From: a virus
Lineage: Duplodnaviria > Caudoviricetes
Virus record (IMG/VR): IMGVR_UViG_3300044634_002660
Span: 1-62,854 of that record
DNA: 62,854 nt
Strand: one strand, 5' to 3'
Shown one piece after another: positions 3,631 to 52,800 of the stretch. How positions within the stretch are numbered: the stretch's first letter is position 1; every line of letters starts with the position of its first letter. The notes beneath the pieces are model-generated. The model did not search any database, had not been told where the DNA came from, and worked only from the letters and a program-made list of their open reading frames with translations. Made by a program: the position numbers and the translations under genes.

Positions 3631-3631
3631 T

Positions 3632-4609: not shown

Positions 4610-4631
4610 AGTAGAACCATTTTACCATGAT

Positions 4632-5581: not shown

Positions 5582-5723
5582 ATAACGCTGCCGTTATGTT
5601 TAATGCAACAACGATTATTGCTGGTCCAACAAAACCAGGGTCAAAATTCCATCCATACTGAACTCCAAGATTAAGCAAAAGAGTGTTTAGAGAAATCCAA
5701 AAAATAAATAATAAAAATGTCAT
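5562..5723 (-). CDS. Small two-TM membrane protein (53 aa)
   Basis: Not in track. MTFLLFIFWISLNTLLLNLGVQYGWNFDPGFVGPAIIVVALNITAALYASKSN; ATGA overlap with the thyX stop. Confidence 0.55.
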   Translation of the reverse strand: MTFLLFIFWISLNTLLLNLGVQYGWNFDPGFVGPAIIVVALNITAALYASKSN

Positions 5724-27250: not shown

Positions 27251-27271
27251 ACACATATTGGAGTGTATAGA

Positions 27272-32102: not shown

Positions 32103-32681
32103 ATGGCAGTTAATGTCTCAAATATCGTAGTCGGTGAGGCTACAATCAAGCTTGGCGATTCCGCCAACGCAACAACAATTTCCGCAATGGATGGCTTTGC
32201 TGATCTTGGCGCTACACAAAATGGCGTTGAAATCTCATGGGAGCCAGACATGGTTGATATTGAAATCGACCAGTATGGCGATGCAGCAAGAATCGTTCAG
32301 TCGAAGGTGAAGGTTATGGTTAAGACAACTATGGCTGAAGCAACATTGAACAACCTTGCAATTGCATGGAACTATGACCAGAATACTGGTGGTTCTTCAA
32401 TCATTGCAAACAATGACGGTGCAAGCACCACAACCTTTAAGTTCGGCGCACAGTCTGTGTTCCCATACGAAAAGGGTCTTGTTGTTCAAGGTACCGCTCC
32501 TGGCTCAGCAGCTGGTTCAATTAAGACAAGAAAGTTCTACACCAAGAGAGCAATCTCGATGGAGGCATCAAATGTCACCATGAAGAGAGCAGAGGCATCG
32601 GTGTTCGCCGTTGGTTTCCGCATTCTTCCAAAGACAGAAGACACTGGTTACGAGTACGGCAAGATCATCGATCAGGCATAA
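32103..32681 (+). CDS. Major tail (tube) protein
   Basis: NIVVGEA, DLGATQNGV, DQ, TTMAEATLNNL, YGKIID; AGGAGG RBS. Confidence 0.85.
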   Translation: MAVNVSNIVVGEATIKLGDSANATTISAMDGFADLGATQNGVEISWEPDMVDIEIDQYGDAARIVQSKVKVMVKTTMAEATLNNLAIAWNYDQNTGGSSIIANNDGASTTTFKFGAQSVFPYEKGLVVQGTAPGSAAGSIKTRKFYTKRAISMEASNVTMKRAEASVFAVGFRILPKTEDTGYEYGKIIDQA

Positions 32682-36400: not shown

Positions 36401-39400
36401 AGATACATCAAAAACAAAGAAAGCCTCTGCAAAAGCGACGGAAAATGTTGCTGAAGCGCAGGCTGATGTTGATACAACTGCTGTTGTCGAGCAGGGTAAA
36501 GAAGATGAAAAGACAGCAAAAGAAACAAAACCAAAAACTGGTAGAAAACCTACAGTAAAGAAAAAATCAGAAGAAGCAGTCGATAATACTGCTGAAGCGC
36601 AATCTACTGCAGATGCTGCCACTGTTGTTGAACAAGGCAAAGAAGACAAAAAGGTTGTTGAACAGACAAAGCCAAAAACTGGTAGAAAAGCTCCAGTAAA
36701 GAAGGCTTCTGATAAAGCAGTAGACAATGTTGCTGCTGAACAAGCAAAAGCTGATGCAAAGGCGGCTGAGCAGCAGGGCAAGGCTGATGCCGCAGTAGTT
36801 CGTTCTGGTCCAAGAACAATTAAAGCAAGACTTAAAAGAAAGCCATTCCTTAAAGTTGATAAGAATCTTGAAGGAACTATTGGAGCCTTTAGTCATTTAA
36901 CTTCAACAATTAATGAAATGGTTGCCAACGCACAGCAAGTTAAAAAAGTTTCTGTTGAAGAAGCAATTGCAAAATTAAATTTAGGTATTAAAGGTTCTAA
37001 AAAACTTCGTTTTACTCCTAAAGACTTTACTCGTCTTGCTGAATTGATGGGTGTAATCCTTCCTCAAGCTTTTTATGAAATTCAAGAGTTTACAAATAAA
37101 GCCGGGAAGCCACTACAGATTCAGGCAGATAGTCTTCAAAATATAATTAATGCTATTGCAAAAATTGTTCCAGCATCTGAATCCCTTCCAGAGCTCGCTG
37201 GTAAAAAAGTTTTAAAAATTGAACAAGATTTGAATAGAGCATTTATTGCTCTTGAAAAACAAGGTGGAACAAAAGCTTTTAATATTGGTAATATTGTTGG
37301 AACATTGCGTCATACATTGAATGAAGCAATAAACATGATGATTCCAAAAGAAAACTTAAAAGAAGGTGTCGTTGTTCCATTAGAGGAGTTAACTTACAGT
37401 GACCTTGGAACTGGTGGAAGAAGAAGTCGTGGTCGAAAAGTAAAAGCAAAACCACTTGACTATGATAGTTATGTAGATTCTGCAATACAATTTACAAAAA
37501 CTTCTACAGGTACAGAATTTTGGCGGAAATTAAGAAAAAATTTACAACTTAGAACAGGTAAATCACTGTTTGAAAAGTCGATGACCGAAGAATCATTGAA
37601 TCAATCATATGGTCCAGCAACTGGTGAAGTAACTGAAGGAAATGTAAGAGTTGCAAGAGCATTATCTTTTGGCAGAGCAAAGAGTAGAGGTGCGAGAGCG
37701 CTATTCAGAAGAGAAATAGACTTTGCTAGTTCATTAGATAAACTTACAGAAGAAGCATACAATGCTCATCGTGCAAAAATTGAAAAAGGAATTGCCGATG
37801 CAAGAGCTCGTATGGAAGTTATTAAAAAAATGTTTAGTGCGGGTATGGACACTGACCCGGATAAAACAAAATTATTTTCTATAGATGAATTAAAAGCTGC
37901 ATTAGCGGATTTTGAAAGAGAAATGCGCGAGGCTAATCTTAATGAGGATATTAACGAAGTAATTGAAAAACTTAAAGGTCAATCGGAAATTATTTCTAAA
38001 AATAGAAATAGACCAGGCAAACTTGTGTCTGGTGAAGATGCTATTTTTGATATTTCAAAGAGGTTAGATGAAAACCTCGCAAAAGCTGAAGCATCTTTAA
38101 AGGCAGAGTGGGGAGATGCCGCCCCAGAGGGAGCAAGAAAATCAGCAATTAGAGCGGCCTTTAGGCAAACAGCAAGCGATTTGCAATATGCTTACATGGA
38201 GCAATTAGCATTATTCCAAAAGCAAGTCACCAAAGAAACTCCAGAAGTTGCAAGAAATCTTGCTATTGCAGATGAGAATGTTGAAATTGCAAGAGGCAAA
38301 CTTAAAGATGTAAAAGGTCTTAAGGTTGGCTCTGAAGAAGGAAAGGAATATTTCAAAGGTCGTAAAAAAGCTGATGTTGTTAAGGGTCTTGAGAAAGAAT
38401 TAAGTTTATTAGAAGAACAAAGACATGCAATTAAACTTCAACATGATGAATTAGTTAGAAGAAATCAGGCTGAGCAAGAAAATATTAGGAATCTTGAAAA
38501 AGTAAGAGATGCACAACTTGCTATTCTACAATCAAGAAGGGTCGATATTGGTCTTCAGCCAATTACAATATCTGGTCCAGCAATCGAAGATACTTCTCCA
38601 TCAAGCAGCGAAAGAGCAGAGGCTTATTGGAAATCAAGATCAGAGTCCATGTCGAAAGCTCTCAACCAAGAAGATGCAGACAAAAGAGCTCCTGATGCAA
38701 TTTCCACAACGGTAGTTAATGCTATTACTCAAGTTTCTCAAGAGATTCTTGATGCAGAGCAAGTCGTAAAGGCAGCAAGAGAAAGATTAGATGAACTTAT
38801 TGGTCTTAGAACAGATATTTCAATGTCTGAACCGGGAAAGCCTTTTGCTGAAAAAGCACAAGCAAGAGTTAAAGAAGCTGTTAAAAATCTTAAAGTTAAA
38901 GCCGCTAATATTGATAAAGAAATCGTTAAACAAGAAAAAACTCTTGAAGAAGCAAAGACTGAATTAGCAAAAGTTAGTGAAAGAAGTCGTGCTGGTGGTG
39001 GAGGTCGAACTGGTTCTGTAAACCTCGGAATGCCAATGGCCGGTGGTTTTGGTGATCCAATGTCAACAGACCTTTCTCCAAGAGGAGGAAGAAGATCTCC
39101 TCTTGACATGATGACACCAAGAAACATCATGAGCATGATTCCTTCCGGTGGAGATTTAACTCCTGACCTTAGCGGTGTTATTGAAACTCTGTTTAAACAA
39201 ATTTCTCAAGCTATCGGAGCACCTGCTGAGGTTATGGCGGGGGTTCTTAAAGATATTGATGACAGAGCAAAGAGAGTTTCAACAATTGTAAATACTTCTC
39301 TTGATCAATTTGATAATGAACTTGTTAATAAACTTATTACTCAAATTCAAGGCCTTCTCGGAGATAGTGAATTAACTGTTGAAAATATTTATAATGCAAT

Positions 39401-42400
39401 TCTTGGTGCAAGAAACCAAATTTATGGAATGGTTCCAAAAGAGATTAAAGGTAATGTAATAAGTGGTAAAGCAACTGCTGAGCAAGTTACTGGTCTTGTT
39501 GAGGCTTTAAATCTTTACAATGTTTCAAAAGAAGAACTTCTTAAACTTGATGCAAGAACATTGAGAAAGATTGCTGAAAAGATGAAACTTGAAGGTAGAG
39601 CAAAGGCAAGTGAAGATGTTCTTGCCGGTCTTATCCATAATGCAATATTTAATCTTGATAAAGAAACAATTAAGGCAATTGATCTTGTTGCTCTTATGCC
39701 TGTTGTTGAAGCAGGAGCAACTGTCAAGACTGCTGGCAAAACTGTTCCAAAACCAGCTGCTCAGAAGAAAGTTAAAGAAGCGGTTATTAAACTTGAGGAT
39801 ACTGTTGAGGAAGTGATTGTGACAACTGAGCAGGTCATTGAGACAACGGCAAAAACAGTTGATGCTGTATTCGTCAAAATACAGAAGTCTATTCCAGTCG
39901 CTGTTCGCGTTGGGCAATCCGTCTTAGACCGTAGGGCTACAGGAATCGGAAGCGGTTGGAAGGCATCTGACGATCCAGTTTCTCCACCAATTGCTCCGAA
40001 CTTACCACGCACTCCGGGGCCATTCCCTCCACCAAGATTTGGCTACGGAGGAACAGATTCTCAAGATAAATTCCTTCTTAGCCTTGTTAAAATCATAGAT
40101 GCTTCTGTTTCTGCTGGTAAAGCAGTTGGTTCTCTATACCTGTCGGTCATGAGGGCTGGAACAATGATGCTTCCATTTGGCAAGACTGTATGGAACATTG
40201 GTTCAGGATTCGTTTCCTTAACACAAAGCGCAATTGCTCTTTATAAGAGCTCTAAGGAGGCTGGAACGGGTCTTCAGGGCGTTGGGAAGACTCTTAAAGA
40301 GATTGCGAAAGCAAAGATATTTGGTGGAACATATACAAATGCACAAGGTAAGCAAGTCGAATCAGCTGGTGTTCTTGGTCGATTGAGCGGAACTGCTGGT
40401 TCGATAAAGCAAGCATTCTCTGGTGCAGCAGGTAGTGGTATTCAAGGTCTCATCAATACGGCAACAATGGGTATGGGGCAATTTGGATTTGTTGCTGGCA
40501 ATGTTCTTCAGAACCTGACTTCTGCACTCCAAACAATCCCGTATGTTGGAGGTCCAGTAGTTGGCATTCTTGGTGCAATTGCTGGCTCAATTTATCTTCT
40601 CATTAAGTCATCAACCATTTGGAAAGGAACAAACGAAGAAGCCTTTAAAAACTTTAAAGATGCTTGGCAAAATATTAAAGACATCTTGTCTGCAATCGCA
40701 GGCCCGTTTGAAGACTTCATCGGAACGCTTCTTGGAGCTCCAGAGGCTGGTGCAAACGCAACTGATTCGGCAAAAAGCAAGCTCCTTGCATTCTCAAATT
40801 TCATTCTCAACCTTTCTAATAGAATTGAATCTTTTGTAAAAGACTACATTGTTCCAGCAATTAGAAGATCACTAGAAATTGTTGTTTATATATTTAATGC
40901 AATTAAACCATTTGCCTCAGCAACTGTTGGATTGGTTGTTGCAATCTTTAATCAGATAACAAATAGACAAGCAAATATGGTTAAAAAAGCAGGAGATCTT
41001 TTCAAGCAAGGAACTCAAGAAGCAAGCGCTGGAAACTTTAGAATGGTTGATAATGCAATCAGAAATGTTAAAAGTGTTGAAGATGCTTGGGCAACATTTA
41101 AAAATTCTTTTAAAAATGTTTGGGAAGCAATTACTAATATTGTTCAATATTATTTATCAATAATTTATCTTAGAGCATATATGTTCTTAAATCTTGCAAT
41201 GGCAGAGATTCTTCAATCATTGGTTAGTCTTTTCTTTGAAGCCGGTCAGCAAATGGGTGAGGCTATTCAGAATGGTATGTTTTCAAAAATCAAAGGACCA
41301 CTTAAAGTTCTTAGCTATCTTAGCCCAGTAGCTAGAGGATTAGGCCCTCTAGGCTCCCTTATAGGGATGGCAAGTAGTGGTGCTCAAGGAGTATCCAATA
41401 ATTTCTTTGATAAGACACAAACAGATATCACAAGTAAGTTTAATAAGATGATTAAAGCCATTGAAAGCAGCGGTCAAGGTAAAGCAGCTTTTGATAAACT
41501 TCTTAATTCCTTAATGCCAAAAGGCGCTGGAAGTGGACTGTTCAAGTCGTTTAGAGATTTACTTACTAAAGTATTTAAAGACCCAACTGCTGCAAATGCT
41601 GCTGCTGACAATTTCAAGGATGCTGTAAATAGTGCTTTATCAAACCTTAAGCAAACCTTCTTTAATGCCGCATTAAGCGGTTTAAGCGATGCTGTTTCAA
41701 AAATCAAGAGTGAAGTCTCCGATATTCTTGAGACTCAAAAAGAAGAGTACCTTAAGGCTTATGATGATCAAATTGCTGCTATTGACGCAATGGTTGAGGC
41801 TGAGCAAAGACTTACCGCAACAGAAGAATATGAAGCTGACAAGAGACAGAGAATCAAGGATAGAGAACTTCAAAGACAGAACTATCAGAAGAATCGTACT
41901 TTGGCAATCTATGAGGGAAGAATTGATGATGCACGACAACTTGACCTTGAAGAGCAAAAAAACATTTCAGATTTCAATAAAGAAAATGCCGATGCAGAAA
42001 CTGCAAGGAATAGAGATCTTCAAGGTAACGCAAGAGCAGATGCAAAAGCAGTTATTGAAAAGCAAAGGTTGGAGGCTTCTAAATTATTTGATCAGGCAAT
42101 TAAGGATTTCAACGAGTATGTCGAAACTGTCGGTAAGAATGGAACATTAACAGAAGCTCAATTAACAGAGCAATGGAAAAAAATCTCTGAAGAAGCAGAA
42201 AAAACCTCAAAGGGATTGTATGACACATTCAAAACTTCATTTGAAGCTCTTCCGGGAGCAATATCCGCTGTTACCAATTCTGCTGGTGGTCTATTTAACA
42301 TTCCATACGACAAATTAATTGAAGAAACAAAGAAGCAATTTGGTATTGGAAATGAAAATGCAGACTCAATACTTGGCTTAACAAGATCGATGCTCACAGG

Positions 42401-45400
42401 TCAGGGTTCTGCAATATCCAGTGCTTTCGACACAAGTGGTCCAATTACAAAATCTTATTCTGAAGGTCTTGAGAAGTTAAAGACTTATATTGCAACTAAA
42501 AATTCTGGAGAGGGAGAGGATAGCCTTAAGGGCATCTTCAAGAAGATTATTGCTGACGCTAACGAAGCAGCAAGGCAAGAAGTTCTCAAGGGGCAGACTG
42601 GTATTGGAAGTGCATTTGACCAGTTGGTTGGGAAAATGGATGCATCTCTTAGAAAGCTTGCGATAAAGGATATTGTCGCAGCTCAACTTAAAGAAGCGAT
42701 TGATCTTGTTAATAATACGACAATCCCTGCTCCTCGAATTCAAAACAGAACCGATGCAAGTGGTAATAGTGGATTTGGCGCTGGTGGACAGAGAGTGCCA
42801 GCAGGCAGTAATCAACCAACTCCCGGATTTGATCCTAGGTCAGTGTTTGGTCTTACAAGTGGTCAAGACACTACATCACAGGGTCAGTGGTGGTCAAGAT
42901 TTAGACTGAATAACAAATCTCCTTGGAATGCTTGGAATAAATTTGCAGCAGACAAACTTCCTATGTATCAGAACTTCCAGTTAAAGAATCCACAAAGATG
43001 GGAACTTAAGTTCCTTCCAAAGTCGATTGCTGTTGATCCTAATACAGTTATTGGTGGCACAAACTTCGGCCCAGTTCGTTTTAATGGTGGAGCTATCCCG
43101 TATGGAAATGGTGGTCCAACAGAAGGTCCAATGCATCAAGGCATCCCCGCAATCCTTCATGGCGGTGAGTATGTTGTTCGGAAGTCTGCTGTTGATAAGT
43201 ATGGCACCGGAATGCTTCAAAAAATCAACCAAGGAACATTTGGGAAGAAAGGCGGTTTCTTTACTGGTGGAAGAGTTCGTGGAAGCAGCTTGGATGTTCC
43301 TGGTCTTAATATGGGAACAGATCCTAAATTTAATACAACAAGAGATGTAATTCGTAAACAATATACTAGTTTTTATGAAGGACTAGAGAAATTGGCCCCT
43401 AGTAGAGATAGAGCTCTTTATGAATGGCAAGTTTCAATGGGTGGTCTTAATTACAATTATATGAGAGAGATTTGGAGAAAAGAATCAAAAGATTGGGCTA
43501 ATAAAGGTGAATACGCTGGTGGTGGTCTTGGGATTGAATATGACAACTGGAAAAAATGGGGAGGTTTGGAATTCTCAGATTTCCCATATAATGCAAATCC
43601 ATATCAACAAATGGCTGTTTATAACAGAATGTTTGCTCTTGGTTATAAAGGAAAATATGGCGTAAAAGAAAAAGCCTTTAGTGCGGCTCAAAGAATTAAA
43701 GATACTTATGGTGGTAAATTGGCTGCTTTCCATTTTGGTTCAAAACAACTTTATGACAATGATGCATTTGTAAATAAAAATACTCCATCAAATAAAGATA
43801 AAACAAACAACTCTATTATTGTTTCTGAAAAGGATGGCATTGGGTACACACCAACAGGTAGTGCCGGATTCCGCAACTTCATTCCAATCTCTAGATTGAG
43901 AGATAGAAGAGGTAAAAGATTTGTAGACGCAAGATCTTCTTCCTACAAGCCATTCTCTTTGTTTAATGGTGGTTCAATGCCTCAATTCAAAAAGGGAGGC
44001 CCAGTCCGTTTAAGTTGTGGTATTTGTGGAAAAGGGTTTGCAAACGGAGGTCTGTTAAGAGCTCATCAACACACAGGTCATTTCAATGGTGGTTTGCTAC
44101 CAAGTTATAAAGTTGGTGGAACTGTAAAACCTGCTGCAGTAACTTTAGATGAATCGATTTATGGTCCAGAGCCAACAATTGATGAAAAAATGATTAAATA
44201 CATTTCTTGGTATAATAAAGACACAACGCCATATGATGCTCTATTCGATGTAAGACTAGGCGTTTCTGAGAGAACCGATCTTGGTCTTGTTAAAGGTATG
44301 GGAGATATTGGAACTTTAAGTAAATTCTATGAGAATGAAAAATATCCAAAAGGAACTATTGGTATTGGAAATATTTCCGATAAGAAAAATAAATACAATC
44401 GTGCAATCCTTACTTTAAAGAAAAACGCTCCTAAAAATGCAATTGATTATTTTAAAAAACTTATTTATTCTGAAATACAACGAGCAAAGAAAGTTCAAAA
44501 ATATCAAGAATACTATTTATCACAAGAAGAGAAATTTGCTTCTGATTATGCGCCATCTCCAAGTAAAGCTTTTGTAAACATACGAGGATTTGACTTCCAA
44601 CCTTATGAATATGACTGGCAAACAACAAGTATTGAGATGATGGCGAATCAACTTAAACAAGGAAACCTTAATAAAATTAAACCATTGAAAGCTTTTTATC
44701 AAAATTGGGATTCTAGTAAAGTTAAAAAGATTATTGGTATTGATCCTATAAAAGAAGGGTTCTATACAGCAATGAATTCCGTCTCCAAAGTAATAGGATT
44801 TGATGATTTTTCTATTGCTGATTCAAAAAATGCATTTCAAGATGCTAGAAAATATTTTAATAATAATAAAAATGTATTGGCTTTAAATGCACAGCCTTTT
44901 CCTCCTGGAGAACTTCCTGAAGGAAGTACTATAGGAGGAAGAGCTTCTGTATTCATGCCAGAAAAAATTGGAGGATCATCGTCTATATCAGCAATAGATT
45001 ATAATCCTAAAGTACTTGATTACTACCTAGATCACTATAAGAGAGGGGATATTGATAAATCTACTCTCAAGATACAACAACATATGAAACCTGATGCTTG
45101 GAAGAGAATATTTCTTCATGAATTTGGTCATTCTATTAATCTAGGTCACCTTGATGAAGGCTACAGGTCATACAGAAGCGGAGAAGAATTACCAAAAGGC
45201 TTTAGTTCACCATTTGATAGAAATGAATCCATTATGTCTTATGCATATGTAAATCAAGATGATACCCCCGCAAGATTTGGTATTGGAGACATTGCATATA
45301 TTCAAAGACTGCAAGATATTATTTTTAAAGGTAAAAAGCCAAAAACCCCAAAGGCAACGGTTCCATCAACAACGACAACTACTCCATCAAGACCTACTAC

Positions 45401-48400
45401 TACAACGACAACTCCTTCAAGACCTACAACAACGACAACTGTTCCATCAAAACCTACTACGACTACAACTGTTCCAAAGGCTCCTACTACAACTGTTCCT
45501 CCAAAAACGACTACAACAACTGTTCCACCTACAACGACAACAGTTCCTACTGTTCCTTGTCCTACAATCCCTGGTGTAACACCAATACCTAATCCAACAA
45601 TACCAAATCCTGGTACTACAACAACTATTCCTAAAATACCTGGGGTTACTCTTCCTAATGGCACAACAACAACATCAATTCCTGGTATTGACAATACAAA
45701 ATGTAAAGTAATACCAATTAGAGTTTGGGATAACGATAAAAATCCAGGATTTACAGAGGATAGTTTTGCTGGAATGACTTGGCCAATGGCAAGAGATTCT
45801 CAATCTGGATGGAGAAAATGGTTTAGAGAAAGAAAAACTATTGGATCAAAATGGACTTACTGGAAAGTTGTAAATCCTAAAGAAAAGGCAAAGCTTGCAA
45901 AGAAGCAAGTTAAGAATCCTGAGCTTATTGAGAGTATTCAATATCCGGTTCCTCATGACCCAAATGCTTGGCAGATGGAGAAAGACAAATACCCAGAAAG
46001 ACAACCCAGTAGGGGAGGAAGTAAATCCGGGAAAAATGGCAGAACATGGCGTATTAAATGGGTAAAAACTTGTGAGACTACTCCACCAACAGGAACAACA
46101 TCGTCAACATCAACTACAACAACCATGCCAAATGGAGTTCCATCAACATCTGTTCCTGGAGTTACGACATCTACAACACCAATAAGACCAATACCTAACC
46201 CAACAATACCTCAGCCCTGTTTCCCTCCAGAAATTTATCCAACAGGGTTAAAAGTTCCACAATCTAGAATTGTTGCTATTTATGACAAAGATCCAACATC
46301 AAGATTTGTTGGTGGAATTATGCCATATGCAAATGGAGGTCCAACGGTAGGACCAATGCATAAAGGTATTCCTGCCATTCTTCATGGTGGTGAATATGTT
46401 GTAAGAAAGAGTGCGGTTGACAAATATGGCACCAACATGCTTCAGAATATTAATCAGGGCACATTTGGTAAAAAAGGCGGTTACTTTAAAGGTGGTCTTA
46501 TTCCATCAGGGCTTGAGGTATCTTCCGATAAGAAAAATCTGTCCAGATTGGGATCTCTTAAAATCCCAAGACTTCAACTTAACAGTCCTGTATACGAAGG
46601 TGTAAATGAGGATACATTGAATGCTGGTCTTGGACATCAACCGGGTACACCATTTGGATGGTTGGGTAATACCGTTATTGGTGGACATCGCACTAAAGGC
46701 AATAGCCTATTTAGAAATATTACAAAAATGATTAAAGGCGATAAAATTAATTTAACTAGAGGTAATTCTAGTTATGAATACGAAACCGCTTATTCAAGAA
46801 TTTTAAAACCAAATCAAGTTCAAGAATTAATGGGACAACCTCAAGGTCAAGTTAGTGGTTATAATTCAATATTAAGCCTCTTCTCATGCCATCCTCTTGG
46901 TTCAACAAAACTTAGATACATTCTTATTGCTAAATTAAAAAAGGCTTTTGATGGTAGAAAGGTTTCTAGATACAAGATTGGTGGAGTTGTAAAGGGAGGC
47001 AAGAAATCAAATCCTGCCGGAAATCCACCTCCTCCATACAAGACATGGGAAGAGTATTTTGCTGCAGAGGGACCACTAACGCCATATCAAAAATCTATTA
47101 TGATTCCTAATAGGAATAATAGTAGTAACCTTCAACCTTACGATAAGAAATGGCGCGCTGAAATAAAAAGAAAAAATGAGGCTTTTGATAAAAGTTTTAT
47201 TAATAGATTTGTCAAACCTGTTAGTGAGATTTTTGGTCCTATGGCTGCTATCAAGTTCGGCGCAGAAACAATTACTGGTAAAGACCTAGATGCCGCTGCT
47301 GGTTCTAATAAAAAACAAAACCGTCTTGGTTCTGCTGCCAACACCATTTTGTCGTTAATACCCTCAAAGGTTGTAACAAAACCACTTGGAAAGATTGCAT
47401 CAAAAACTGGTATTTCTGGAATTGCTTCTAGAGTTATTGGAAAGGGTTCTGGTTTAATTGGTAATCAACTTAAAGGTTTCAAATCAAAATTTGCATCAAT
47501 GTTTAAGGGTCTAAAATCTTCAAAGGCAGCGAATAGTGGTGTGATTGAAGATCAAATACCAACACACTGGGGAGCAATTACTCAAGGATTAAAGGAAGGG
47601 GTTATTCCAACAAATAAACAAGCAGTTGATGCTATGCTTGCAAGGCAAGCACTTGAATTATTTGATGAATTAGATTATTTAGTAACTGGTCAAATAAAAG
47701 GTAGTGTCAATAGCCTTGATAAAGCTCGATTCTTAGATCAGTTAATTCTTGATGCAATAAATGATGTCCCTACAACTGCCACTAAAGATTTGAGCGTAGA
47801 AGACAGACTTTTTGGTATAGCTAAAAGTCTTGCTAATCTTTTAAACCCAAAAAAGGGATTAAGCGCTCTTGACCCAAGAATTCTTCCAAAATCAAAAGAA
47901 TTAATTGAATATCAACAATTTGTAAAAGATTTTAATGGAATGCTATTGCGTGAAGTGGAGTTAAGATCTTCAGCTTGGAATAAAGCAAATCCAAATGCAA
48001 CCCGTGAAGAACAAAGTGTAGCATATAAAGATATTCTCGATAACTGGTATGATAAAAATAAAATTCCAGATACTCCACTTTCAACAAATGATATTGCTCC
48101 TAATACAACTAAAAAAATTAAAACACCTAATAAATCTAAAAAAAATAATATCTTTAACCCTTTTAAAAATATCTCACCAAAAAATAAAAAATTTAATGGT
48201 GGAGCTATTCCATACTTTGATGGTGGTAGTACATACGGATCAGAGAGCCAAGGAATTCCTGCAATTCTTCATGGTGGTGAATATGTAATTCGTAAATCTT
48301 CTGTTAATAAATATGGAACAAATATGCTTCAAAATATCAATCAGGGTATTTACAAGAAAGCTGGTCAGTATAAGATTGGTGGATATGTTGATGGAATTAA

Positions 48401-48659
48401 TGTTCCTTCAATCCCTAAGTTCTCAACCCCGATGGCAAACTATGCAAAGATCTCTGCACCAAATGTGTCAACTGGTACAATGCAGTCAGAGTCCACTCAT
48501 AACTATAACTTCTTTGTCGACAACTTTATCGGAGAGACTGAATGGTTTAACTCAATGATGAAAGAATACAATATGAAAGTTGTCCCTGCTAACCAAAAGC
48601 AAGCCGGTCTTGAATCAAGGATTGTTAGAACATATAATGGTATAAACAGAGGAATGTAA
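33453..48659 (+). CDS. Giant tape measure protein (5068 aa) with a C-terminal cargo-domain cassette
   Basis: Follows the chaperones; N-terminal tape-measure core (GNRLSMGLTLPL, GASANSVKVSLQRL, LFGVRQ); long helical region; C-terminal repeats and enzyme domains. Confidence 0.92.
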   Translation: MAERNGRVEITAEIDQRLQSALSQMSSSLRSTIEVTNAVNRSTDLTKSTMRGLSQALSVTSGSTNEYNRSVTEAVKNQAILASHFGKTKEAIASLNKIMANSRGTNVTSQDIAVQRAFINQLQSQLGIQKELQKYSNTQSLMAQSNALNSLATKYSYAGNRLSMGLTLPLVGFFRTAFSNYRRLEIETVRTTKLLGDSYTDAGAQVKTLGKELDAISLKYGVARDLVQGLAGDYAELGITDIKALSGLTDLTAATEKLGNVDITEASNFIKSIYQTVNRVKRDEAARAGRAISFKDPAEEALFYADSIAQVRGQLAMFNLLENKTSLALQDIAKAFPELTAASTSFGLSMTEASALIIPMVASGFQVGASANSVKVSLQRLVAMTKKNQEAIKELKLTQADFNFEAGVGIETIQKLSDGYESLKRTRGDEGALRFFSDLFGVRQGPRMEVALQNLSQFQSQISKAGTIEDQLTTQLENYVRQRAGQAGLGEKYSKMELTKYSDLSKVIRLSQNADKEVASAFTSARADFGNYLVSESKRGQDLLGKVTTETGRALFAAASGGGKGSQAEATFNLELEKALDTADRRYKTSRESIKALGREMVPVFDSILKVVVPLLEKFAKFVGGIPSGFKAFLTIGGLVLAMLGPIMKIRGAFAQLHSSVLSFKASGGIFKNLKSSIHPISAELLASSDAFLRFKNKLTQVGNQFFFKGTIKELKQMEKLIAAQSSGRTRVSDRLEKKLKLKETADYSGLYEETSNQLKNVFDESLDGYLKPYSGIKPDITGTIIDGRVVGLEMGNAFVSVLTSLGFDPRAFTRVASTAGSATTTTTPAGDVVVVPPNIKRTGSRTPPPDDDGPDGPPSGGSPAGGSPTGGAPAGGGAAQRGPRVRNAMSGLEQVWGALQGTMDFVNSATKSQLQDFAKSLNITKVSGFTVKSPKLKVAQLRRAIIEAISAPSQVIAKAAEEIQTTVEQVKETVNNNAPPAKDTSKTKKASAKATENVAEAQADVDTTAVVEQGKEDEKTAKETKPKTGRKPTVKKKSEEAVDNTAEAQSTADAATVVEQGKEDKKVVEQTKPKTGRKAPVKKASDKAVDNVAAEQAKADAKAAEQQGKADAAVVRSGPRTIKARLKRKPFLKVDKNLEGTIGAFSHLTSTINEMVANAQQVKKVSVEEAIAKLNLGIKGSKKLRFTPKDFTRLAELMGVILPQAFYEIQEFTNKAGKPLQIQADSLQNIINAIAKIVPASESLPELAGKKVLKIEQDLNRAFIALEKQGGTKAFNIGNIVGTLRHTLNEAINMMIPKENLKEGVVVPLEELTYSDLGTGGRRSRGRKVKAKPLDYDSYVDSAIQFTKTSTGTEFWRKLRKNLQLRTGKSLFEKSMTEESLNQSYGPATGEVTEGNVRVARALSFGRAKSRGARALFRREIDFASSLDKLTEEAYNAHRAKIEKGIADARARMEVIKKMFSAGMDTDPDKTKLFSIDELKAALADFEREMREANLNEDINEVIEKLKGQSEIISKNRNRPGKLVSGEDAIFDISKRLDENLAKAEASLKAEWGDAAPEGARKSAIRAAFRQTASDLQYAYMEQLALFQKQVTKETPEVARNLAIADENVEIARGKLKDVKGLKVGSEEGKEYFKGRKKADVVKGLEKELSLLEEQRHAIKLQHDELVRRNQAEQENIRNLEKVRDAQLAILQSRRVDIGLQPITISGPAIEDTSPSSSERAEAYWKSRSESMSKALNQEDADKRAPDAISTTVVNAITQVSQEILDAEQVVKAARERLDELIGLRTDISMSEPGKPFAEKAQARVKEAVKNLKVKAANIDKEIVKQEKTLEEAKTELAKVSERSRAGGGGRTGSVNLGMPMAGGFGDPMSTDLSPRGGRRSPLDMMTPRNIMSMIPSGGDLTPDLSGVIETLFKQISQAIGAPAEVMAGVLKDIDDRAKRVSTIVNTSLDQFDNELVNKLITQIQGLLGDSELTVENIYNAILGARNQIYGMVPKEIKGNVISGKATAEQVTGLVEALNLYNVSKEELLKLDARTLRKIAEKMKLEGRAKASEDVLAGLIHNAIFNLDKETIKAIDLVALMPVVEAGATVKTAGKTVPKPAAQKKVKEAVIKLEDTVEEVIVTTEQVIETTAKTVDAVFVKIQKSIPVAVRVGQSVLDRRATGIGSGWKASDDPVSPPIAPNLPRTPGPFPPPRFGYGGTDSQDKFLLSLVKIIDASVSAGKAVGSLYLSVMRAGTMMLPFGKTVWNIGSGFVSLTQSAIALYKSSKEAGTGLQGVGKTLKEIAKAKIFGGTYTNAQGKQVESAGVLGRLSGTAGSIKQAFSGAAGSGIQGLINTATMGMGQFGFVAGNVLQNLTSALQTIPYVGGPVVGILGAIAGSIYLLIKSSTIWKGTNEEAFKNFKDAWQNIKDILSAIAGPFEDFIGTLLGAPEAGANATDSAKSKLLAFSNFILNLSNRIESFVKDYIVPAIRRSLEIVVYIFNAIKPFASATVGLVVAIFNQITNRQANMVKKAGDLFKQGTQEASAGNFRMVDNAIRNVKSVEDAWATFKNSFKNVWEAITNIVQYYLSIIYLRAYMFLNLAMAEILQSLVSLFFEAGQQMGEAIQNGMFSKIKGPLKVLSYLSPVARGLGPLGSLIGMASSGAQGVSNNFFDKTQTDITSKFNKMIKAIESSGQGKAAFDKLLNSLMPKGAGSGLFKSFRDLLTKVFKDPTAANAAADNFKDAVNSALSNLKQTFFNAALSGLSDAVSKIKSEVSDILETQKEEYLKAYDDQIAAIDAMVEAEQRLTATEEYEADKRQRIKDRELQRQNYQKNRTLAIYEGRIDDARQLDLEEQKNISDFNKENADAETARNRDLQGNARADAKAVIEKQRLEASKLFDQAIKDFNEYVETVGKNGTLTEAQLTEQWKKISEEAEKTSKGLYDTFKTSFEALPGAISAVTNSAGGLFNIPYDKLIEETKKQFGIGNENADSILGLTRSMLTGQGSAISSAFDTSGPITKSYSEGLEKLKTYIATKNSGEGEDSLKGIFKKIIADANEAARQEVLKGQTGIGSAFDQLVGKMDASLRKLAIKDIVAAQLKEAIDLVNNTTIPAPRIQNRTDASGNSGFGAGGQRVPAGSNQPTPGFDPRSVFGLTSGQDTTSQGQWWSRFRLNNKSPWNAWNKFAADKLPMYQNFQLKNPQRWELKFLPKSIAVDPNTVIGGTNFGPVRFNGGAIPYGNGGPTEGPMHQGIPAILHGGEYVVRKSAVDKYGTGMLQKINQGTFGKKGGFFTGGRVRGSSLDVPGLNMGTDPKFNTTRDVIRKQYTSFYEGLEKLAPSRDRALYEWQVSMGGLNYNYMREIWRKESKDWANKGEYAGGGLGIEYDNWKKWGGLEFSDFPYNANPYQQMAVYNRMFALGYKGKYGVKEKAFSAAQRIKDTYGGKLAAFHFGSKQLYDNDAFVNKNTPSNKDKTNNSIIVSEKDGIGYTPTGSAGFRNFIPISRLRDRRGKRFVDARSSSYKPFSLFNGGSMPQFKKGGPVRLSCGICGKGFANGGLLRAHQHTGHFNGGLLPSYKVGGTVKPAAVTLDESIYGPEPTIDEKMIKYISWYNKDTTPYDALFDVRLGVSERTDLGLVKGMGDIGTLSKFYENEKYPKGTIGIGNISDKKNKYNRAILTLKKNAPKNAIDYFKKLIYSEIQRAKKVQKYQEYYLSQEEKFASDYAPSPSKAFVNIRGFDFQPYEYDWQTTSIEMMANQLKQGNLNKIKPLKAFYQNWDSSKVKKIIGIDPIKEGFYTAMNSVSKVIGFDDFSIADSKNAFQDARKYFNNNKNVLALNAQPFPPGELPEGSTIGGRASVFMPEKIGGSSSISAIDYNPKVLDYYLDHYKRGDIDKSTLKIQQHMKPDAWKRIFLHEFGHSINLGHLDEGYRSYRSGEELPKGFSSPFDRNESIMSYAYVNQDDTPARFGIGDIAYIQRLQDIIFKGKKPKTPKATVPSTTTTTPSRPTTTTTTPSRPTTTTTVPSKPTTTTTVPKAPTTTVPPKTTTTTVPPTTTTVPTVPCPTIPGVTPIPNPTIPNPGTTTTIPKIPGVTLPNGTTTTSIPGIDNTKCKVIPIRVWDNDKNPGFTEDSFAGMTWPMARDSQSGWRKWFRERKTIGSKWTYWKVVNPKEKAKLAKKQVKNPELIESIQYPVPHDPNAWQMEKDKYPERQPSRGGSKSGKNGRTWRIKWVKTCETTPPTGTTSSTSTTTTMPNGVPSTSVPGVTTSTTPIRPIPNPTIPQPCFPPEIYPTGLKVPQSRIVAIYDKDPTSRFVGGIMPYANGGPTVGPMHKGIPAILHGGEYVVRKSAVDKYGTNMLQNINQGTFGKKGGYFKGGLIPSGLEVSSDKKNLSRLGSLKIPRLQLNSPVYEGVNEDTLNAGLGHQPGTPFGWLGNTVIGGHRTKGNSLFRNITKMIKGDKINLTRGNSSYEYETAYSRILKPNQVQELMGQPQGQVSGYNSILSLFSCHPLGSTKLRYILIAKLKKAFDGRKVSRYKIGGVVKGGKKSNPAGNPPPPYKTWEEYFAAEGPLTPYQKSIMIPNRNNSSNLQPYDKKWRAEIKRKNEAFDKSFINRFVKPVSEIFGPMAAIKFGAETITGKDLDAAAGSNKKQNRLGSAANTILSLIPSKVVTKPLGKIASKTGISGIASRVIGKGSGLIGNQLKGFKSKFASMFKGLKSSKAANSGVIEDQIPTHWGAITQGLKEGVIPTNKQAVDAMLARQALELFDELDYLVTGQIKGSVNSLDKARFLDQLILDAINDVPTTATKDLSVEDRLFGIAKSLANLLNPKKGLSALDPRILPKSKELIEYQQFVKDFNGMLLREVELRSSAWNKANPNATREEQSVAYKDILDNWYDKNKIPDTPLSTNDIAPNTTKKIKTPNKSKKNNIFNPFKNISPKNKKFNGGAIPYFDGGSTYGSESQGIPAILHGGEYVIRKSSVNKYGTNMLQNINQGIYKKAGQYKIGGYVDGINVPSIPKFSTPMANYAKISAPNVSTGTMQSESTHNYNFFVDNFIGETEWFNSMMKEYNMKVVPANQKQAGLESRIVRTYNGINRGM
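36417..36800 (+). repeat. ~47-aa (141-bp) tandem repeat inside the tape measure gene
   Basis: About 2.7 copies of KK..AVDN.AEAQ...VVEQGKED...TKPKTGRK. Confidence 0.8.
43080..43271 (+). repeat. 64-aa module, copy 1
   Basis: FNGGAIPYGNGGPTEGPMHQGIPAILHGGEYVVRKSAVDKYGTGMLQKINQGTFGKKGGFFTGG. Confidence 0.9.
46305..46496 (+). repeat. 64-aa module, copy 2
   Basis: FVGGIMPYANGGPTVGPMHKGIPAILHGGEYVVRKSAVDKYGTNMLQNINQGTFGKKGGYFKGG. Confidence 0.9.
48192..48383 (+). repeat. 64-aa module, copy 3
   Basis: FNGGAIPYFDGGSTYGSESQGIPAILHGGEYVIRKSSVNKYGTNMLQNINQGIYKKAGQYKIGG. Confidence 0.9.
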
Positions 48660-49057
48660 TGTCAATAATAAGTTTTTTATCATTAAACGGAACAGAGGTT
48701 ACAGAGCAGGGCAGAACAATATCTGACTCTGTAAAAGTCGGGGCATCCGAGGTTGAACTTGATGCTGGAATAACAAAGAGATATATTAAAACGAATAAAA
48801 GAACATTTTCTTTTAAATGGGAATGGCTTCCAACAATCAAAGAAGACACCATTGATAATAGAGAAGCCCGAAACTGGCTTAAGAACTTAGCTCTAACAAC
48901 ACGGGGCAAGGTTCTTATGAATATTCAGTTAAGCCCGGTTGATGCCTCAGAGTCTTTCTATGTTTACATTACTGATTACTCAGAGGATCTTATTAGAAGA
49001 GATGTACAGAGAGCGTGTGACTATTATTCAGCGAGTCTTTCGGTTGAGGAAGCCTAA
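48659..49057 (+). CDS. Distal tail / minor tail protein
   Basis: Immediately after the tape measure gene (TAATG); FSFKWEWLP, YSEDLIRRD. Confidence 0.65.
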   Translation: MSIISFLSLNGTEVTEQGRTISDSVKVGASEVELDAGITKRYIKTNKRTFSFKWEWLPTIKEDTIDNREARNWLKNLALTTRGKVLMNIQLSPVDASESFYVYITDYSEDLIRRDVQRACDYYSASLSVEEA

Positions 49058-49821
49058 TGTCAGAAGAAAATCCAATCTATAGGATAAATGATCTTTTAAG
49101 CGGGGTTGTCTTTAATGAAATTCCTCTTATAGTTGAAGCATCTTCGTCATTAACTATTGAAACTGAATTATCAGTAACAACACTTAGAATTACATTTGTA
49201 TCTGAGTCTTTTTCTGGAGATTTAACAGTTAATTCCTCTGCGTTAAGAATACAGTTTGCATCAGCAAATCTTGATGGAATTGCAAACATTACATTAATTA
49301 CACCAGTCAAAACAGTAATTTTGGGATTAACAAATCTTCCAATTAATAGTAATCTTTTAATTTCTGACTTAATACGTTTTACCCCATCTTCAAGATATCC
49401 GGGATCACTTGTTCCTCTTGTTATTCTTGACAACAATGCTTTAACAGATCAAGGTCGTAAATTTAGTGACAGCATAAAGCAAGTCTTTGTTGAGAAATCA
49501 AATTGGAATAATTCTAAGTCTAGATATTATAAAAGAAATAATGCTGGAAAGATAACATTCAAAATGTCATGGGAATGGCTTCCCTCAACCAGAGACTCCA
49601 CTATTGATAAAAGAGAAGCTAGAGACTATATTAAGAAATTAGCTATGGATCCTGATGTTCATGTCTTAAAGGTTGTTACATATGGAGCGGATCCTGAAGA
49701 TATTTTCTCTGAAACAGCGTATAATGTATTTATAACTTCTTACTCAGAAGATCTTGTCCGTAGAGATTTGACTTCTGATGTTTATTTTTGGAAGTGCGAT
49801 TTGGAATTAGAGGAGGTTTAA
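49057..49821 (+). CDS. Minor tail protein, C-terminal half paralogous to the preceding gene
   Basis: TDQGR, WEWLP, TIDKREAR, YSEDLVRRD shared with 48659..49057. Confidence 0.65.
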   Translation: MSEENPIYRINDLLSGVVFNEIPLIVEASSSLTIETELSVTTLRITFVSESFSGDLTVNSSALRIQFASANLDGIANITLITPVKTVILGLTNLPINSNLLISDLIRFTPSSRYPGSLVPLVILDNNALTDQGRKFSDSIKQVFVEKSNWNNSKSRYYKRNNAGKITFKMSWEWLPSTRDSTIDKREARDYIKKLAMDPDVHVLKVVTYGADPEDIFSETAYNVFITSYSEDLVRRDLTSDVYFWKCDLELEEV

Positions 49822-52800
49822 TGATTACACAAGATGTCTATGGGAAACCATTATCCGATTCGTTTCAAACCGCTACCAATTCATACGCTCAAAAGGTAAA
49901 ACCAAAGGTTGTTATCACCTTTCTAGATAGTCGCCATGTAGACAATCTTGTTGTAACGAGTAGTGATTCCTATACATCAAACTCAAGAGGAACACTGGCC
50001 CAGCAAATGGCCGGCACTTCAATGCTTAGCGGTTACTTTTTTACACCTCAGCAATCAATGAATGGAACACAGAGGCAAGGATTTCCTTGGGCTATTGCTG
50101 GAGATATTGACCAGAACGGCAAGACGATATGTGCTGATGGAAACTTTTATGCTATGCCAAGCGACCTTGAAGATAATTATAAGTATGGATGGAGATCAAA
50201 TGCTGTATCAACAGCAACATTGCATTCTGTTTCTGGATATGAATTTACAACACCAATTTGGATAAACTATAGCTTTACTCAAAGAAAAGTTAATAAGGTA
50301 AAGGTTGTAACATCAGAATTTGGTGGTAAAATAAGTTACTATAAACTTGAAATTGCTAACAATGCTTTGTCAACATTTCATACCGTGTTTGCTTCAATTG
50401 GTAAAGATGAATACTATAGAGAGCATATAATTCCATCAAATATATCTACAGATGTTGCTACAATTAAAATAACTATATATAGCACACAGACAAAATCAGA
50501 TCGTGCAAGGCTTATTGAGGTCATTCCTTTATACGAAGTTGATGTAACAGACTATGTTGTAAGCCATTCTGTTCAAAGACAAGGTGAACTTTGGGAGAAT
50601 TCAATTCCAATTGCAGGAAGTGGTTCTTCAAGTGCATCGATTGTATTGGATAATACAACAAAAGATTTTAGCCCATTTGACCCTACATCTTTATATGGAA
50701 AATATATGAAAAAAGATTTGAAAGTTAAACTTTCAAATGGTTGGAGGATTGTAAAAACAGACGATATTTTGGTCAATGCTGTTTTAACTTCTTCCATGAC
50801 AACATCAAGCAATACACTATCTGTTAATGATGCAGCTGGTTTTTTAAATGGCAATGCTACAAACCAATTTACATTAATAGTTGATAAAGGAACTCCTAAT
50901 GAAGAGGTTGTTTTGTGTTCAACAAGAACGGATAAGACAGTAACTATCCTTGACCGAGGCTATGACGGAACCTATGCTGCCAACCATAGCGCTGGTTCTT
51001 CTGTGATTTTTGACCCATACGAATACATTAACTTAGGGGAGTTTTACATAGACGAATGGTCTGGAAGTAGCGGAATGGATCTCACAATAAAATGCTTGGA
51101 CAAAACAAAATTTTTAACTGAAAAGCAAATCACTAAGGGTTTCTATGTTCAGAACTCAACAGTCGGTCAGGCAGTTAAGAATATGCTTATGCAGACAAAT
51201 ATCTCGCAAAATGAATTATCACAACTTGTTCCGTATTCTGATTTCTTGCAACAAAATGCGGTTGCGTCATACTCATTTAAAGAAGATTTGACAGACAAGA
51301 CTGGTACACCAATTGTTCCGGGGACTGGATTGAGAGTCCGGTATTGGCAAATTGCAAGTAACAAACTTAACGAATTAAAAGACATTAAGGCTGACGCTTT
51401 AGACATTCAACTATCTGCATATGACAAAGCAATGAAAGCAAAGAGTTTTGTCCCTCAAAGCAATACACAATTTACAAGTGGCGACTTCGCTGTTGATCTG
51501 CAGAATGTCAAGTTTAGCACAGGACTTGGAACGGCAGAGTCTCCAACCGTTGATGTTAAAGAGTATTTTAACGGTGTCATTGATGGCTACTGGATTCCTG
51601 CAACTGCCGGTAATATGTCTTTTGAAATAGCAGTAACAGAAGGTGGTGTTCGTGCGTACCTTGATGACAATCTTGTTCTTAGTAAATGGACAACAGCAAC
51701 AGGAACTGTTACATCATACGACTATCTTGGTGGATATTTAGATGTTGATGACGGTGTTCCCTATAAACTTAGAATTGAGTTCTTTCATGGTCGTGGTTCT
51801 GAAACATTCGATATCGCCCTGTATACCAAATATGAAAGTTCTTCTGCAACAAAGCTTGCAAGATCACAGACGACAACTGTGGTAGCAGAAGAGTCTATTG
51901 GTAAAAGAAATTCTATCTTTACAAGAGGAGTTAAGAATAGAAATCATTACAGGAATAATGGAATTTATGTAAGTGATCCTGTTCTTAAACAACCATCCGG
52001 TCTGGTTTCAGAACCTTTAAATAAAGCTGTATACCTTGATGGCTCATCTTATATTAGAATACCTTATGATCAATCCTTGAATTTAGCCAACTCATCAAGT
52101 ACAAGTTATACAGATGAATGGTCAATTGAATTATACGCAAAATTTCCTAACACATTTAATAGCGATGGTGAATATTTAAGCAACTGGAGCAATGCTTCTT
52201 CAACATCTGGTTTTGAATTTTTTAATACATCATCAAGTCATGGATTTAAAATTATAAAACATAATGGAACAGTAAAAACTGCTTCATCAAATACAGCTTT
52301 GTCAACAACATCCTATACACATATTGTAGTTACACATAAAGATGGTGATGCTAAATATTATGTAAATGGAGTTCTTGCGGGTAATGTTGATGGTGTTGGA
52401 GCACAAGCTAGTTGGGTTAACGACATAACAATTGGCGGAAGGGGTGCTAGTTTCTCCGCAGGCGCTGAGGTTGCACCATCTACTATTCGTAGTTTTTATA
52501 TTGATGAGTTCGCAATGTATAACAAAGCCCTTACCGCAGAGACTATTAAGGACAGATACATCACGACTCAGATTAAGCCAATAACATCATTCCCTCATCT
52601 TTATGGTAATGACCAAAGTGCAAAACAAATTATTGATGCAATTGCCTTGGGTGATTTTGGAAGATTTTTTGTGGATGAAAATGACAAGTTTCAGTATTAT
52701 CATTACTATAGATTCTTTGAGCCAACTATTACACAGCATTCGGTAAGTCAAAAAACAATATCAGATAGCACTCATATTCAAAGCGGTGAGTATAATGTGC

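Follow-up and report, generated by a model that had tools for sequence, protein, structure and literature searches.

The ending of a giant phage tape measure protein is duplicated and filled with variable units

The 62,854-nucleotide (nt) viral contig analysed here, referred to as the window, carries a gene for a tape measure protein (TMP) in which the usual ending of the protein is duplicated and filled with variable units, some of which are recognisable enzymes. The open reading frame (ORF) extends as a single open frame on the + strand from 33453 to 48659, is 5,068 amino acids (aa) long with the stop codon counted, and takes up 24% of a contig that CheckV estimates to be about 60% complete. 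An ordinary TMP ending consists of a conserved module of about 64 aa, flanked by [FY]xxGG words rich in glycine and aromatic residues, and a tail of about 90 aa; the duplication of its module divides the ending of the present protein into three units. The first comprises the module copy M1 and, behind it, an Rpf-like transglycosylase, a mini-cassette with a zinc finger, a metzincin-like region, and Thr/Pro linkers around a Trp-rich segment. The second comprises M2 with a sortase and a segment of about 400 aa without a family, and the third M3 with the tail.

The product is, judged from its sequence, the tape measure protein of a siphovirus, an uncultured lake-water phage. This identification rests on a PhageMin_Tail domain (PF10145) above the cut-off (E 2.4e-11, 44.3 bits against 33.2; aa 219-441, nt 34107-34775), on matches of the N-terminus to four PHROG tape-measure families (5448, 28, 10030 and 1533) and on gene order.

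Three copies of a tape measure module

A 64-aa module containing GIPAILHGGEYV occurs three times in the TMP, starting at nt 43080, 46305 and 48192 (aa 3210, 4285 and 4914). The three near-identical modules claimed by the original prediction, which was made from the letters of the DNA, are thus borne out, and the outer copies share 84% and 67% protein identity with the middle one. M1 occupies 43080-43271 (aa 3210-3273), M2 46305-46496 (aa 4285-4348) and the terminal copy M3 48192-48383 (aa 4914-4977), all on the + strand, and a C-terminal tail of 91 aa follows M3 (48384-48656, +). The core of the TMP (aa 1-3209; 33453-43079, +) is without a copy by the hidden Markov model of the module, and it is collinear with the cores of P0003-P0006, the closest relatives, which lie on other contigs. 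Each module is laid out as two [FY]xxGG words, then a conserved core, then another word.

The DNA of the three copies is 66-78% identical, and the longest exact run shared by two copies is 10-23 nt. With a synonymous divergence (dS) of 1.1-1.4 and a ratio of nonsynonymous to synonymous divergence (dN/dS) of 0.11-0.24, the differences are mostly synonymous, which indicates that the protein, not the identity of the DNA, is what selection maintains. All three copies are under purifying selection. At this divergence, M1, M2 and M3 are too different for recombination with one another within a genome.

Repeats like these can confuse an assembler, and since the window comes from a metagenome, the triplication or the long ORF could in principle be an assembler chimera. 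We attach next to no weight to this explanation. The copies are only 66-78% identical, four related proteins on other contigs share the three-module layout, and contigs of four other lake-water runs match the region with 30 of 30 bins covered and zero differences. Single contigs bridge each of the modules into unique flanks: M1 is bridged by contigs of runs X5, X6 and X7, M2 by X7 record 21 (44838-47559), X5 record 5 and X9 record 30, and M3 by X6 record 16 and X9 record 32. The triplication is real and not a misassembly. The stretch 42800-48800 is present in 24 runs of 23 studies, all but two of them labelled lake water; four are possibly the source of the window.

Relatives were collected as nine viral loci and 37 distinct giant proteins, the latter from a search of lengths 2,787-8,869 aa. 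At loci L006, L008, L009 and L012 the core runs directly into one module and the tail, which comes straight after the lone module in single-module relatives; locus L005 has two modules with a different cargo between them. Since single-module relatives pass from core to module to tail, aa ~3261-4913 of the present protein are inserted material. Among 38 proteins (the present one included), a refined profile finds one module copy in 11, two in 18, three in seven and five in two.

The modules of the window match all 37 homologues and the C-terminal tail matches 34, while the segments between the modules are far less widely shared. The Rpf-like segment matches 13 of the 37, the finger segment five (mostly through its flanks), the first part of cargo B four and the metzincin two; the sortase, both linkers, the Trp-rich segment and the part ahead of the metzincin match none. 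The collection of homologues that had been suggested as a check on cargo variation, carried out here on these 37 giant TMPs, shows that content is not fixed between the conserved modules. With copy numbers of one to five and cargo segments found in 0 to 13 of 37 homologues, the C-terminal third is the modular, polymorphic cassette region it was proposed to be.

The four closest relatives also have three modules each. Their cores are 71-84% identical to that of the window and their tails 91-95%, and their cargo is mostly unrelated to it. M1 is 92-98% identical to the M1 of P0003-P0006 and is more conserved than the core. Among the five related TMPs, modules at the same position are 92-100% (M1), 84-98% (M2) and 83-89% (M3) identical, compared with 64-89% between positions. 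This position-specific orthology indicates that the triplication predates these phages and that each copy has been retained.

The family extends well beyond these relatives. When a profile is built on eight modules, 8,014 cluster representatives match it at E <= 0.001, and 2,163 do so at 1e-10. Among the best 150 there are 144 new proteins, 151-7,872 aa long with a median gap between modules of about 530 aa. They carry one copy (6 proteins), two (14), three (11), four (59), five (29), six (11), seven (9), eight (3), nine (1) or ten (1), but ranking by total score favours multi-copy proteins, so this distribution is biased and does not give frequencies. Many of the largest proteins have modules along the whole chain, the first at about aa 450-600, and the segments between them almost never resemble one another. 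Two TMP-like proteins, P0100 (7,872 aa) and P0121 (7,794 aa), have nine and ten modules spaced roughly 100-1,300 aa apart. A different arrangement is seen in P0040, where six copies stand back to back at aa 3209-3546 and a seventh lies near the C-terminus. A less biased sample, drawn with one core pattern, consists of 80 viral loci with 81 modules, of which 18 are internal and 63 terminal, the latter being followed by a stop codon after 59-116 aa.

Across 632 distinct module copies, the core P-A-x-L-x-x-G-E-[FY]-V and a later Asn are 81-100% conserved. Pfam has no model for the module, its PF09718 covering residues 627-701 of the lambda TMP gpH only; PHROG tape-measure families include it.

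Cargo between the modules

The first cargo after M1 is an Rpf-like (Transglycosylase-like) candidate domain at 43272-43961 (+, aa 3274-3503), which ends at an FNGG word. An iterated profile ties this segment to 22 TMPs out of 182; two of them, P0009 and P0020, have PF06737 on record. It follows the preceding module at a distance of 2-96 aa in 18 of these 22 TMPs, and the other four yielded no distance; in P0001, P0003 and P0004 it begins at the first residue past M1. Against the sequences of the PDB, the segment gave chance-like ribosomal matches only. Mycobacteriophage TMPs, TM4 being an example, are reported to carry Rpf-like and other lytic motifs, a finding attributed to Piuri and Hatfull in 2006 and to Pedulla and colleagues in 2003. 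As in the window, an Rpf-type transglycosylase segment would there be embedded in the TMP of an actinobacterial phage. Unlike the window, those TMPs are said to hold single short motifs in the measuring part, with no module-bounded series and no reported sortase.

A mini-cassette follows at 43962-44132 (+). It runs from FNGG to FKKGG, through a C2H2 finger (nt 44016-44081), and from FNGG to YKVGG. The finger pattern C-x2-C-x12-H-x4-H lies at aa 3522-3543 and is conserved in P0041. The finger with identical FNGG flanks is also found in that protein, hence in two of 182 proteins, and this recurrence suggests that the finger unit moves as a cassette. In P0041 it lies at aa ~970-1020, about 450 aa ahead of the first full module of that protein.

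Next comes a stretch of about 220 aa without a family, and then a metzincin-like catalytic region (together 44133-45377, +). The putative zinc site HEFGHSINLGH is encoded at nt 45117-45149 and a candidate Met-turn, SIMSY, at nt 45228-45242. Compared with HExxHxxGxxH, the three His and the Glu are correctly spaced, with Asn in place of Gly. SIMSY stands 27 aa past the third His and aligns with the Met-turn region of serralysin protease C. Searches of the PDB gave weak serralysin protease C matches (E 0.68-1.8) in which zinc site and Met-turn are aligned, and the nearest Atlas clusters belong to the M10, astacin and reprolysin families (scores 0.90-0.93). The homologous region in P0003 passes Pfam Reprolysin_4 (24.9 bits against 22). 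An AlphaFold2 model of aa 3561-3975, made with no alignment, has a predicted local distance difference test score (pLDDT) of 32.8, too low for the model to be of use.

The interval 45378-46304 (+) encodes two Thr/Pro-rich linkers (aa 3976-4089 and aa 4216-4284) separated by a Trp-rich segment (aa 4090-4215). The combined fraction of Thr, Pro and Ser in the two linkers is 0.65 and 0.52, a composition that confirms the Thr/Pro stalk proposed earlier, and the DNA repeat family D1 is located in the same interval. Neither the linkers nor the Trp-rich segment matches any family. Only seven cysteines are present in the whole TMP: four lie in or beside the linkers (aa 4036, 4084, 4207 and 4256), two belong to the finger and one is the catalytic residue of the sortase.

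The sortase domain is the most firmly identified cargo, and the earlier claim for it is confirmed. It lies at 46497-46988 (+, aa 4349-4512), between YFKGG and YKIGG. Both PF04203 (E 2e-21, 76.5 bits against a cut-off of 26.6) and TIGR01076 (70.3 bits against 39.35) match above their cut-offs. Solved structures offer 56 matching sortase sequences in the PDB, the best being 8t28 at 2.5e-11, and a PDB search with the whole region gave sortases only. The catalytic motifs lie at aa 4410-4416, 4476-4483 and 4486-4491, and the His, the Cys (in a TLxTC-like motif) and the Arg align with 8t28, 2w1k and 5utt. Among the sortase class models the best is class E at 76.4 bits, below its cut-off of 160 bits, and no class is assigned. 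The nearest neighbours are three short sortases with 36-39% identity.

The remaining cargo (46989-48191, +; aa 4513-4913) has no family, and NCBIfam gives no match to it. Over its first 175 aa it shares 61% identity with the beginning of cargo B in P0005. This segment had been called a TG-like module, a label that is not supported: the Pfam PT-TG model (PF14449) has no match in the window at E <= 10. All that points to such a domain is an Atlas score of 0.86, below the mark of 0.9, to a viral cluster in which 57% of members have PT-TG.

Relatives carry cargo of comparable kinds. A family scan of 12 multi-module TMPs, which left out P0004, P0005 and P0006 (each over 5,000 aa), found PhageMin_Tail in 11 of the 12. 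As cargo it found Transglycosylas, Peptidase_M23, SLT_3, NLPC_P60, Reprolysin_4/5, Acid_phosphat_B and a few others, one each. The recognisable cargo of the window and of these 12 relatives is, by family assignment, of extracytoplasmic and wall-active types.

These assignments bear on the possibility that the TMP is a carrier of polymorphic toxins, delivering toxins or anti-defence effectors to the host cytoplasm as MuF-type proteins do. Polymorphic toxins of the MuF type in temperate phages and bacterial polymorphic toxin systems were reportedly described by Jamet and colleagues in 2017 and Zhang and colleagues in 2012. They resemble the TMP of the window in that a conserved part, belonging to the virion or to trafficking, bears variable C-terminal domains that are swapped by recombination. 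Variable C-terminal cargo on a conserved virion protein fits such a carrier, as does the sub-threshold Atlas lead to the PT-TG-bearing cluster. However, no toxin family is matched in the window by Pfam or NCBIfam, including PT-TG, and the polymorphic toxins are said to place toxins with immunity genes on a head or secreted protein (immunity genes were not searched for in the window). In contrast, the recognisable cargo here consists of wall-active enzymes, several per chain. We consider a toxin carrier highly improbable.

Junctions, docking and the cleavage question

Words of the form [FY]x(1-2)GG are concentrated in the cargo region. In aa 3210-5068 there are 19, compared with 2.9 expected, a number reached in none of 2,000 shuffles. 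With the three modules removed, seven remain against 1.8 expected (6 of 2,000 shuffles), whereas the 3,209-aa core has four against 2.2 expected and is not enriched (181 of 1,000). Every word listed by the original prediction is present: FNGG, YGNGG, FFTGG, FKKGG, FANGG, YKVGG, YANGG, YFKGG, YKIGG (twice) and YFDGG. On its own, the double word makes up a half-module, of which 182 proteins contain 86, with 59 at full modules and 27 standing alone, in 22 proteins; one shuffle of all proteins gave a single stand-alone half-module against the 27 observed. Two stand-alone half-modules flank the C2H2 finger. Relative to P0005, the sortase is inserted exactly between the duplicated Y-x-x-G-G words YFKGG and YKIGG, and homology to P0003 and P0004 stops precisely at the FNGG with which the Rpf-like domain ends. 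Among five TMPs, 35 breakpoints of collinear homology were collected. In 18 cases both sides of the breakpoint have a word no more than 10 aa away, and most of these 18 are module edges.

The module is homologous to residues 729-775 of lambda gpH. A search of that one sequence matches it to the module profile (E 1e-7, 18 bits), and the matched segment directly follows a glycine-rich stretch of gpH. According to the available part of a lambda study (PMC12617516), gpH is cut in a glycine-rich region into gpH* (about residues 1-710) and a gpHC of about 14 kDa. The latter is held in the tail tip through residues 818-849, and residues ~690-817 are not resolved. That part identifies neither the cleavage site nor its catalyst in lambda, and names lambda and T5 as the only phages with TMPs known to be cleaved (PMC12617516).

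Lambda gpH and the protein of the window are both TMPs. In lambda, the matching stretch comes after the glycine-rich region of the cut and is followed by the short C-terminal part with which gpHC binds to the tip (PMC12617516). M3 and the tail, 155 aa together, have the same layout as lambda gpHC. Lambda has one copy of the module and no enzyme, whereas the window has three copies, which enclose about 1,580 aa of cargo. In T5, the available text (PMC10038345) places the cut of pb2 after R1127, between a hydrophobic stretch and a muralytic peptidase, during assembly. The C-terminal fragment is retained in the tip, and its expulsion into the periplasm has been proposed (PMC10038345). As in the window, a C-terminal piece of the TMP would bring an enzyme to the wall, in T5 a muralytic metallopeptidase proposed to be expelled first and to digest peptidoglycan (PMC10038345). 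Unlike the window, pb2 has no homology to the module, has one cargo of 92 aa and belongs to a phage of a Gram-negative host. A third comparison is the tail-associated lysin Tal of the lactococcal phage TP901-1, in which a glycine-rich motif before a lytic domain is a proteolytic processing site, according to the portion of the source at hand (PMC11409707). Tal also has a glycine-rich junction ahead of its lytic domain, but it is a hub or fibre protein and not a TMP, and its junction, as that portion gives it, is a plain glycine run without an aromatic residue or a conserved core (PMC11409707).

Taken as a whole package, the reading that we favour, and hold to be somewhat more probable than its negation, is that of a polymorphic TMP that carries cargo. 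Its C-terminal tail would be docked in the tail tip, its cargo would leave first, and its units would be separated at the module flanks. Docking is suggested by residues 818-849 of lambda gpH and by the C-terminus of T5 pb2, as the available parts of the two accounts present them (PMC12617516, PMC10038345). The cargo units would then sit in the distal lumen of the tail and would exit first at infection, like the peptidase fragment of T5 pb2, and their target would be the cell wall of a Gram-positive host, probably an actinobacterium. Each module, together with the glycine-rich sequence beside it, would serve as a junction at the protein level, where units are either cut apart, in the manner of lambda gpH, or at least remain flexible and independent of one another. 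The conservation of such junctions from phage to phage would allow complete cargo units to be exchanged. Cleavage at the modules is the weakest step of this package and, taken by itself, is doubtful. A broader generalisation, in which the module is a cargo adaptor of long-tailed phages at large and whatever lies between two modules is stored in the lumen of the tail, cut free at the glycine-rich flank when the tail is completed and injected before the DNA, appears slightly less probable still.

A number of observations weigh against the favoured reading or parts of it. Three of the proposed enzymes or domains, the Rpf-like domain, the C2H2 finger and the metzincin, are supported only by the indirect or sub-threshold evidence given above, and all three stay below the Pfam cut-offs in the window. 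PF06737 reaches E 0.0021 and 19.1 bits on the Rpf-like domain, below its 27-bit cut-off. The finger scores E 0.009 and 16.9 bits with zf-C2H2 (PF00096) against a cut-off of 25.2, and the metzincin-like region of the window matches no Pfam metallopeptidase family at E <= 0.1. The sortase is a cargo peculiar to this protein, being found in no other giant protein among those searched. No LPXTG-type signal occurs in the C-terminal region of the TMP or in the 40 listed ORFs, apart from chance-like pentapeptides, which leaves the sortase without an identified substrate among the ORFs of the phage.

The cleavage step meets objections of its own. None of the 81 modules has a stop codon within the fetched ~500 aa upstream, so no natural split of a gene at a module was seen. 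No conserved residue marks a cut site, and a preference for K or R before the first aromatic residue is weak. The His position of LHGGE is T in 67%, H in 16% and S in 13% of the 632 copies; not being conserved in the wider family, this His is not a general catalytic residue. A search of T5 pb2 for the module finds none (best E 0.36), so the two known TMP cleavages do not have the module in common. A G-G with an aromatic residue past the cut site of pb2, seen by eye, is not counted as evidence. Of the earlier proposal that the repeats are processing signals, what stands is the analogy with gpH 729-775 next to the cut region, as far as the available lambda account goes; T5 pb2, the other TMP that is cut, lacks the module.

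The boundaries, finally, do not all fall at the words. The other 17 of the 35 breakpoints lie inside cargo, where the closest word is 28-472 aa away on one side or both, and the breaks between strain-level variants at 44787 and 47935 also fall inside cargo. The 35 events are mutually dependent, and module edges are expected as breakpoints merely because the modules are conserved. The words thus mark many boundaries but not all. For the suggested role as recombination anchors, the 18 breakpoints near motifs speak in favour, and the 17 others together with the strain-level breaks speak against it, leaving the role weakly supported.

The strain-level breaks come from contigs of X5, X7 and X9 that match 44787-47935 perfectly and have unlike sequence before 44787 and after 47935. 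The continuation past 47935 resembles cargo B of P0003, and these loose ends are co-occurring variants of the TMP with other cargo. Further loose ends lie at 46402-46408, inside the core of M2, from which contigs run on into the module sequences of other phages. Distinct phages of one lake therefore share near-identical module-core DNA.

Such sharing raises the possibility that the modules are recombination scars only, that is, DNA homology anchors for co-infecting phages whose internal copies have no function in the protein. The divergence of other phages' contigs past the shared M2 core is what this explanation would predict, as is cargo that differs between conserved modules. However, the predominance of synonymous differences and the low dN/dS point to a function in the protein, the longest exact match between paralogues is no longer than 10-23 nt, and half of the breakpoints, with both of the strain-level ones, lie inside cargo. 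We regard this explanation as quite unlikely.

An unprocessed single chain is the more serious competitor, possible though not probable in our assessment. The modules and words would then be hinges or contacts, and the chain of 5,068 aa would be ejected whole with its enzymes tethered. As structural elements, they would let folded or partly folded domains thread in single file through the lumen. Several results are compatible with this: the flanks are glycine-rich, no split gene was found at any of the 81 modules, and M1 with its flanks is not predicted to fold alone, an AlphaFold2 model from 36 sequences giving a pLDDT of 53.7, with only a short helix-turn-helix near 70. Moreover, the T5 cleavage site is not homologous, and cleavage is known for the lambda and T5 TMPs alone, so far as the available part of PMC12617516 goes. 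Against a single uncut chain stands the homologous lambda segment, which begins beside the cut region of gpH in the same partial account. The conservation of the ~35-aa core of the module, in which P-A and G-E are 96-100% conserved over the 632 copies, also exceeds the needs of a plain hinge. A predicted complex of three module copies scores 0.01 and 0.12, compared with a mark of 0.42, and counts neither for nor against the single chain.

It is already known that TMPs can carry one lytic motif, and that the lambda and T5 TMPs are cleaved with the C-terminal piece kept in the tip. A literature search, with poor coverage of subscription journals, found no account of repeated gpHC-type modules between cargo in TMPs, and none of a sortase within a TMP. 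The element that follows the cut region in lambda is here repeated, one to ten times across the family, is preserved by purifying selection where it lies internally, and encloses segments that are unrelated to one another and include some recognisable enzymes. The locus and its relatives can thus be viewed as a natural experiment on the role of gpHC and on how and why TMPs are cut. The 8,014 module-bearing cluster representatives also suggest that phage tails contain a large store of wall-active enzymes that has apparently not been described. If the module were a general cargo adaptor, multi-module TMPs of up to ten modules and 7,872 aa would be virion-borne polyprotein injection systems, with a logic comparable to that of polymorphic toxins or of cargo loading in contractile injection systems. 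In that case, the sortase would be the first instance of a phage rewiring host wall anchoring from the outside.

Tail genes and other features of the contig

At about 0.15 nm per residue, the figure used in the original prediction, the 5,068 aa of the TMP correspond to about 760 nm. Its core has hydrophobic segments at aa 626-650, 2362-2387, 2480-2498 and 2577-2595. Two tandem 141-nt repeats (family D3, nt 36416-36697), 71% identical, encode a duplicated stretch of the core rich in Ala, Lys and Glu.

The gene lies among other tail genes. Its upstream neighbour (32103-32681) matches major-tail PHROGs. Downstream, at 48659-55084 (+), ORFs of 132, 254, 1,307 and 457 aa follow, and no family is assigned to the first two, which come directly after the TMP gene. 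The 1,307-aa ORF (49788-53711, +) encodes a minor tail protein (phrog_10359, E 1.2e-22) with PA14 and lectin-like Laminin_G_3 domains, a combination that suggests binding of host-surface carbohydrate. The 457-aa ORF (53711-55084, +) encodes a fibre or spike protein (phrog_4636 and phrog_1980, tail spike/fibre).

The phage collection contains little that resembles the region. A query with 24 kb of DNA gave no match and a 1,969-aa protein query gave a single weak match. The module gave eight weak matches, five of them in TMP genes of Gordonia and Vibrio phages, one in a hypothetical protein and two in Ralstonia records without annotation.

A 203-aa ORF at 1263-1874 (-) has a weak match to a proteasome subunit (PF00227, 26.4 bits against a cut-off of 22.4), which may point to an actinobacterial host. 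Together with the origin from lake water and the Rpf-like and sortase cargo, this proteasome-like gene may serve as a hint to the host. Amid the structural genes, a 490-aa ORF (27263-28735, +) matches PHROG 2928, annotated as 'tryptophan halogenase', at E 1e-99. Elsewhere, the contig has genes of nucleotide metabolism, for ThyX (5720-6415, -) and a class II-type ribonucleotide reductase (7944-10001), and of glycosylation, for a GT4 glycosyltransferase (6864-7883); a tRNA-Asn lies at 795-870.

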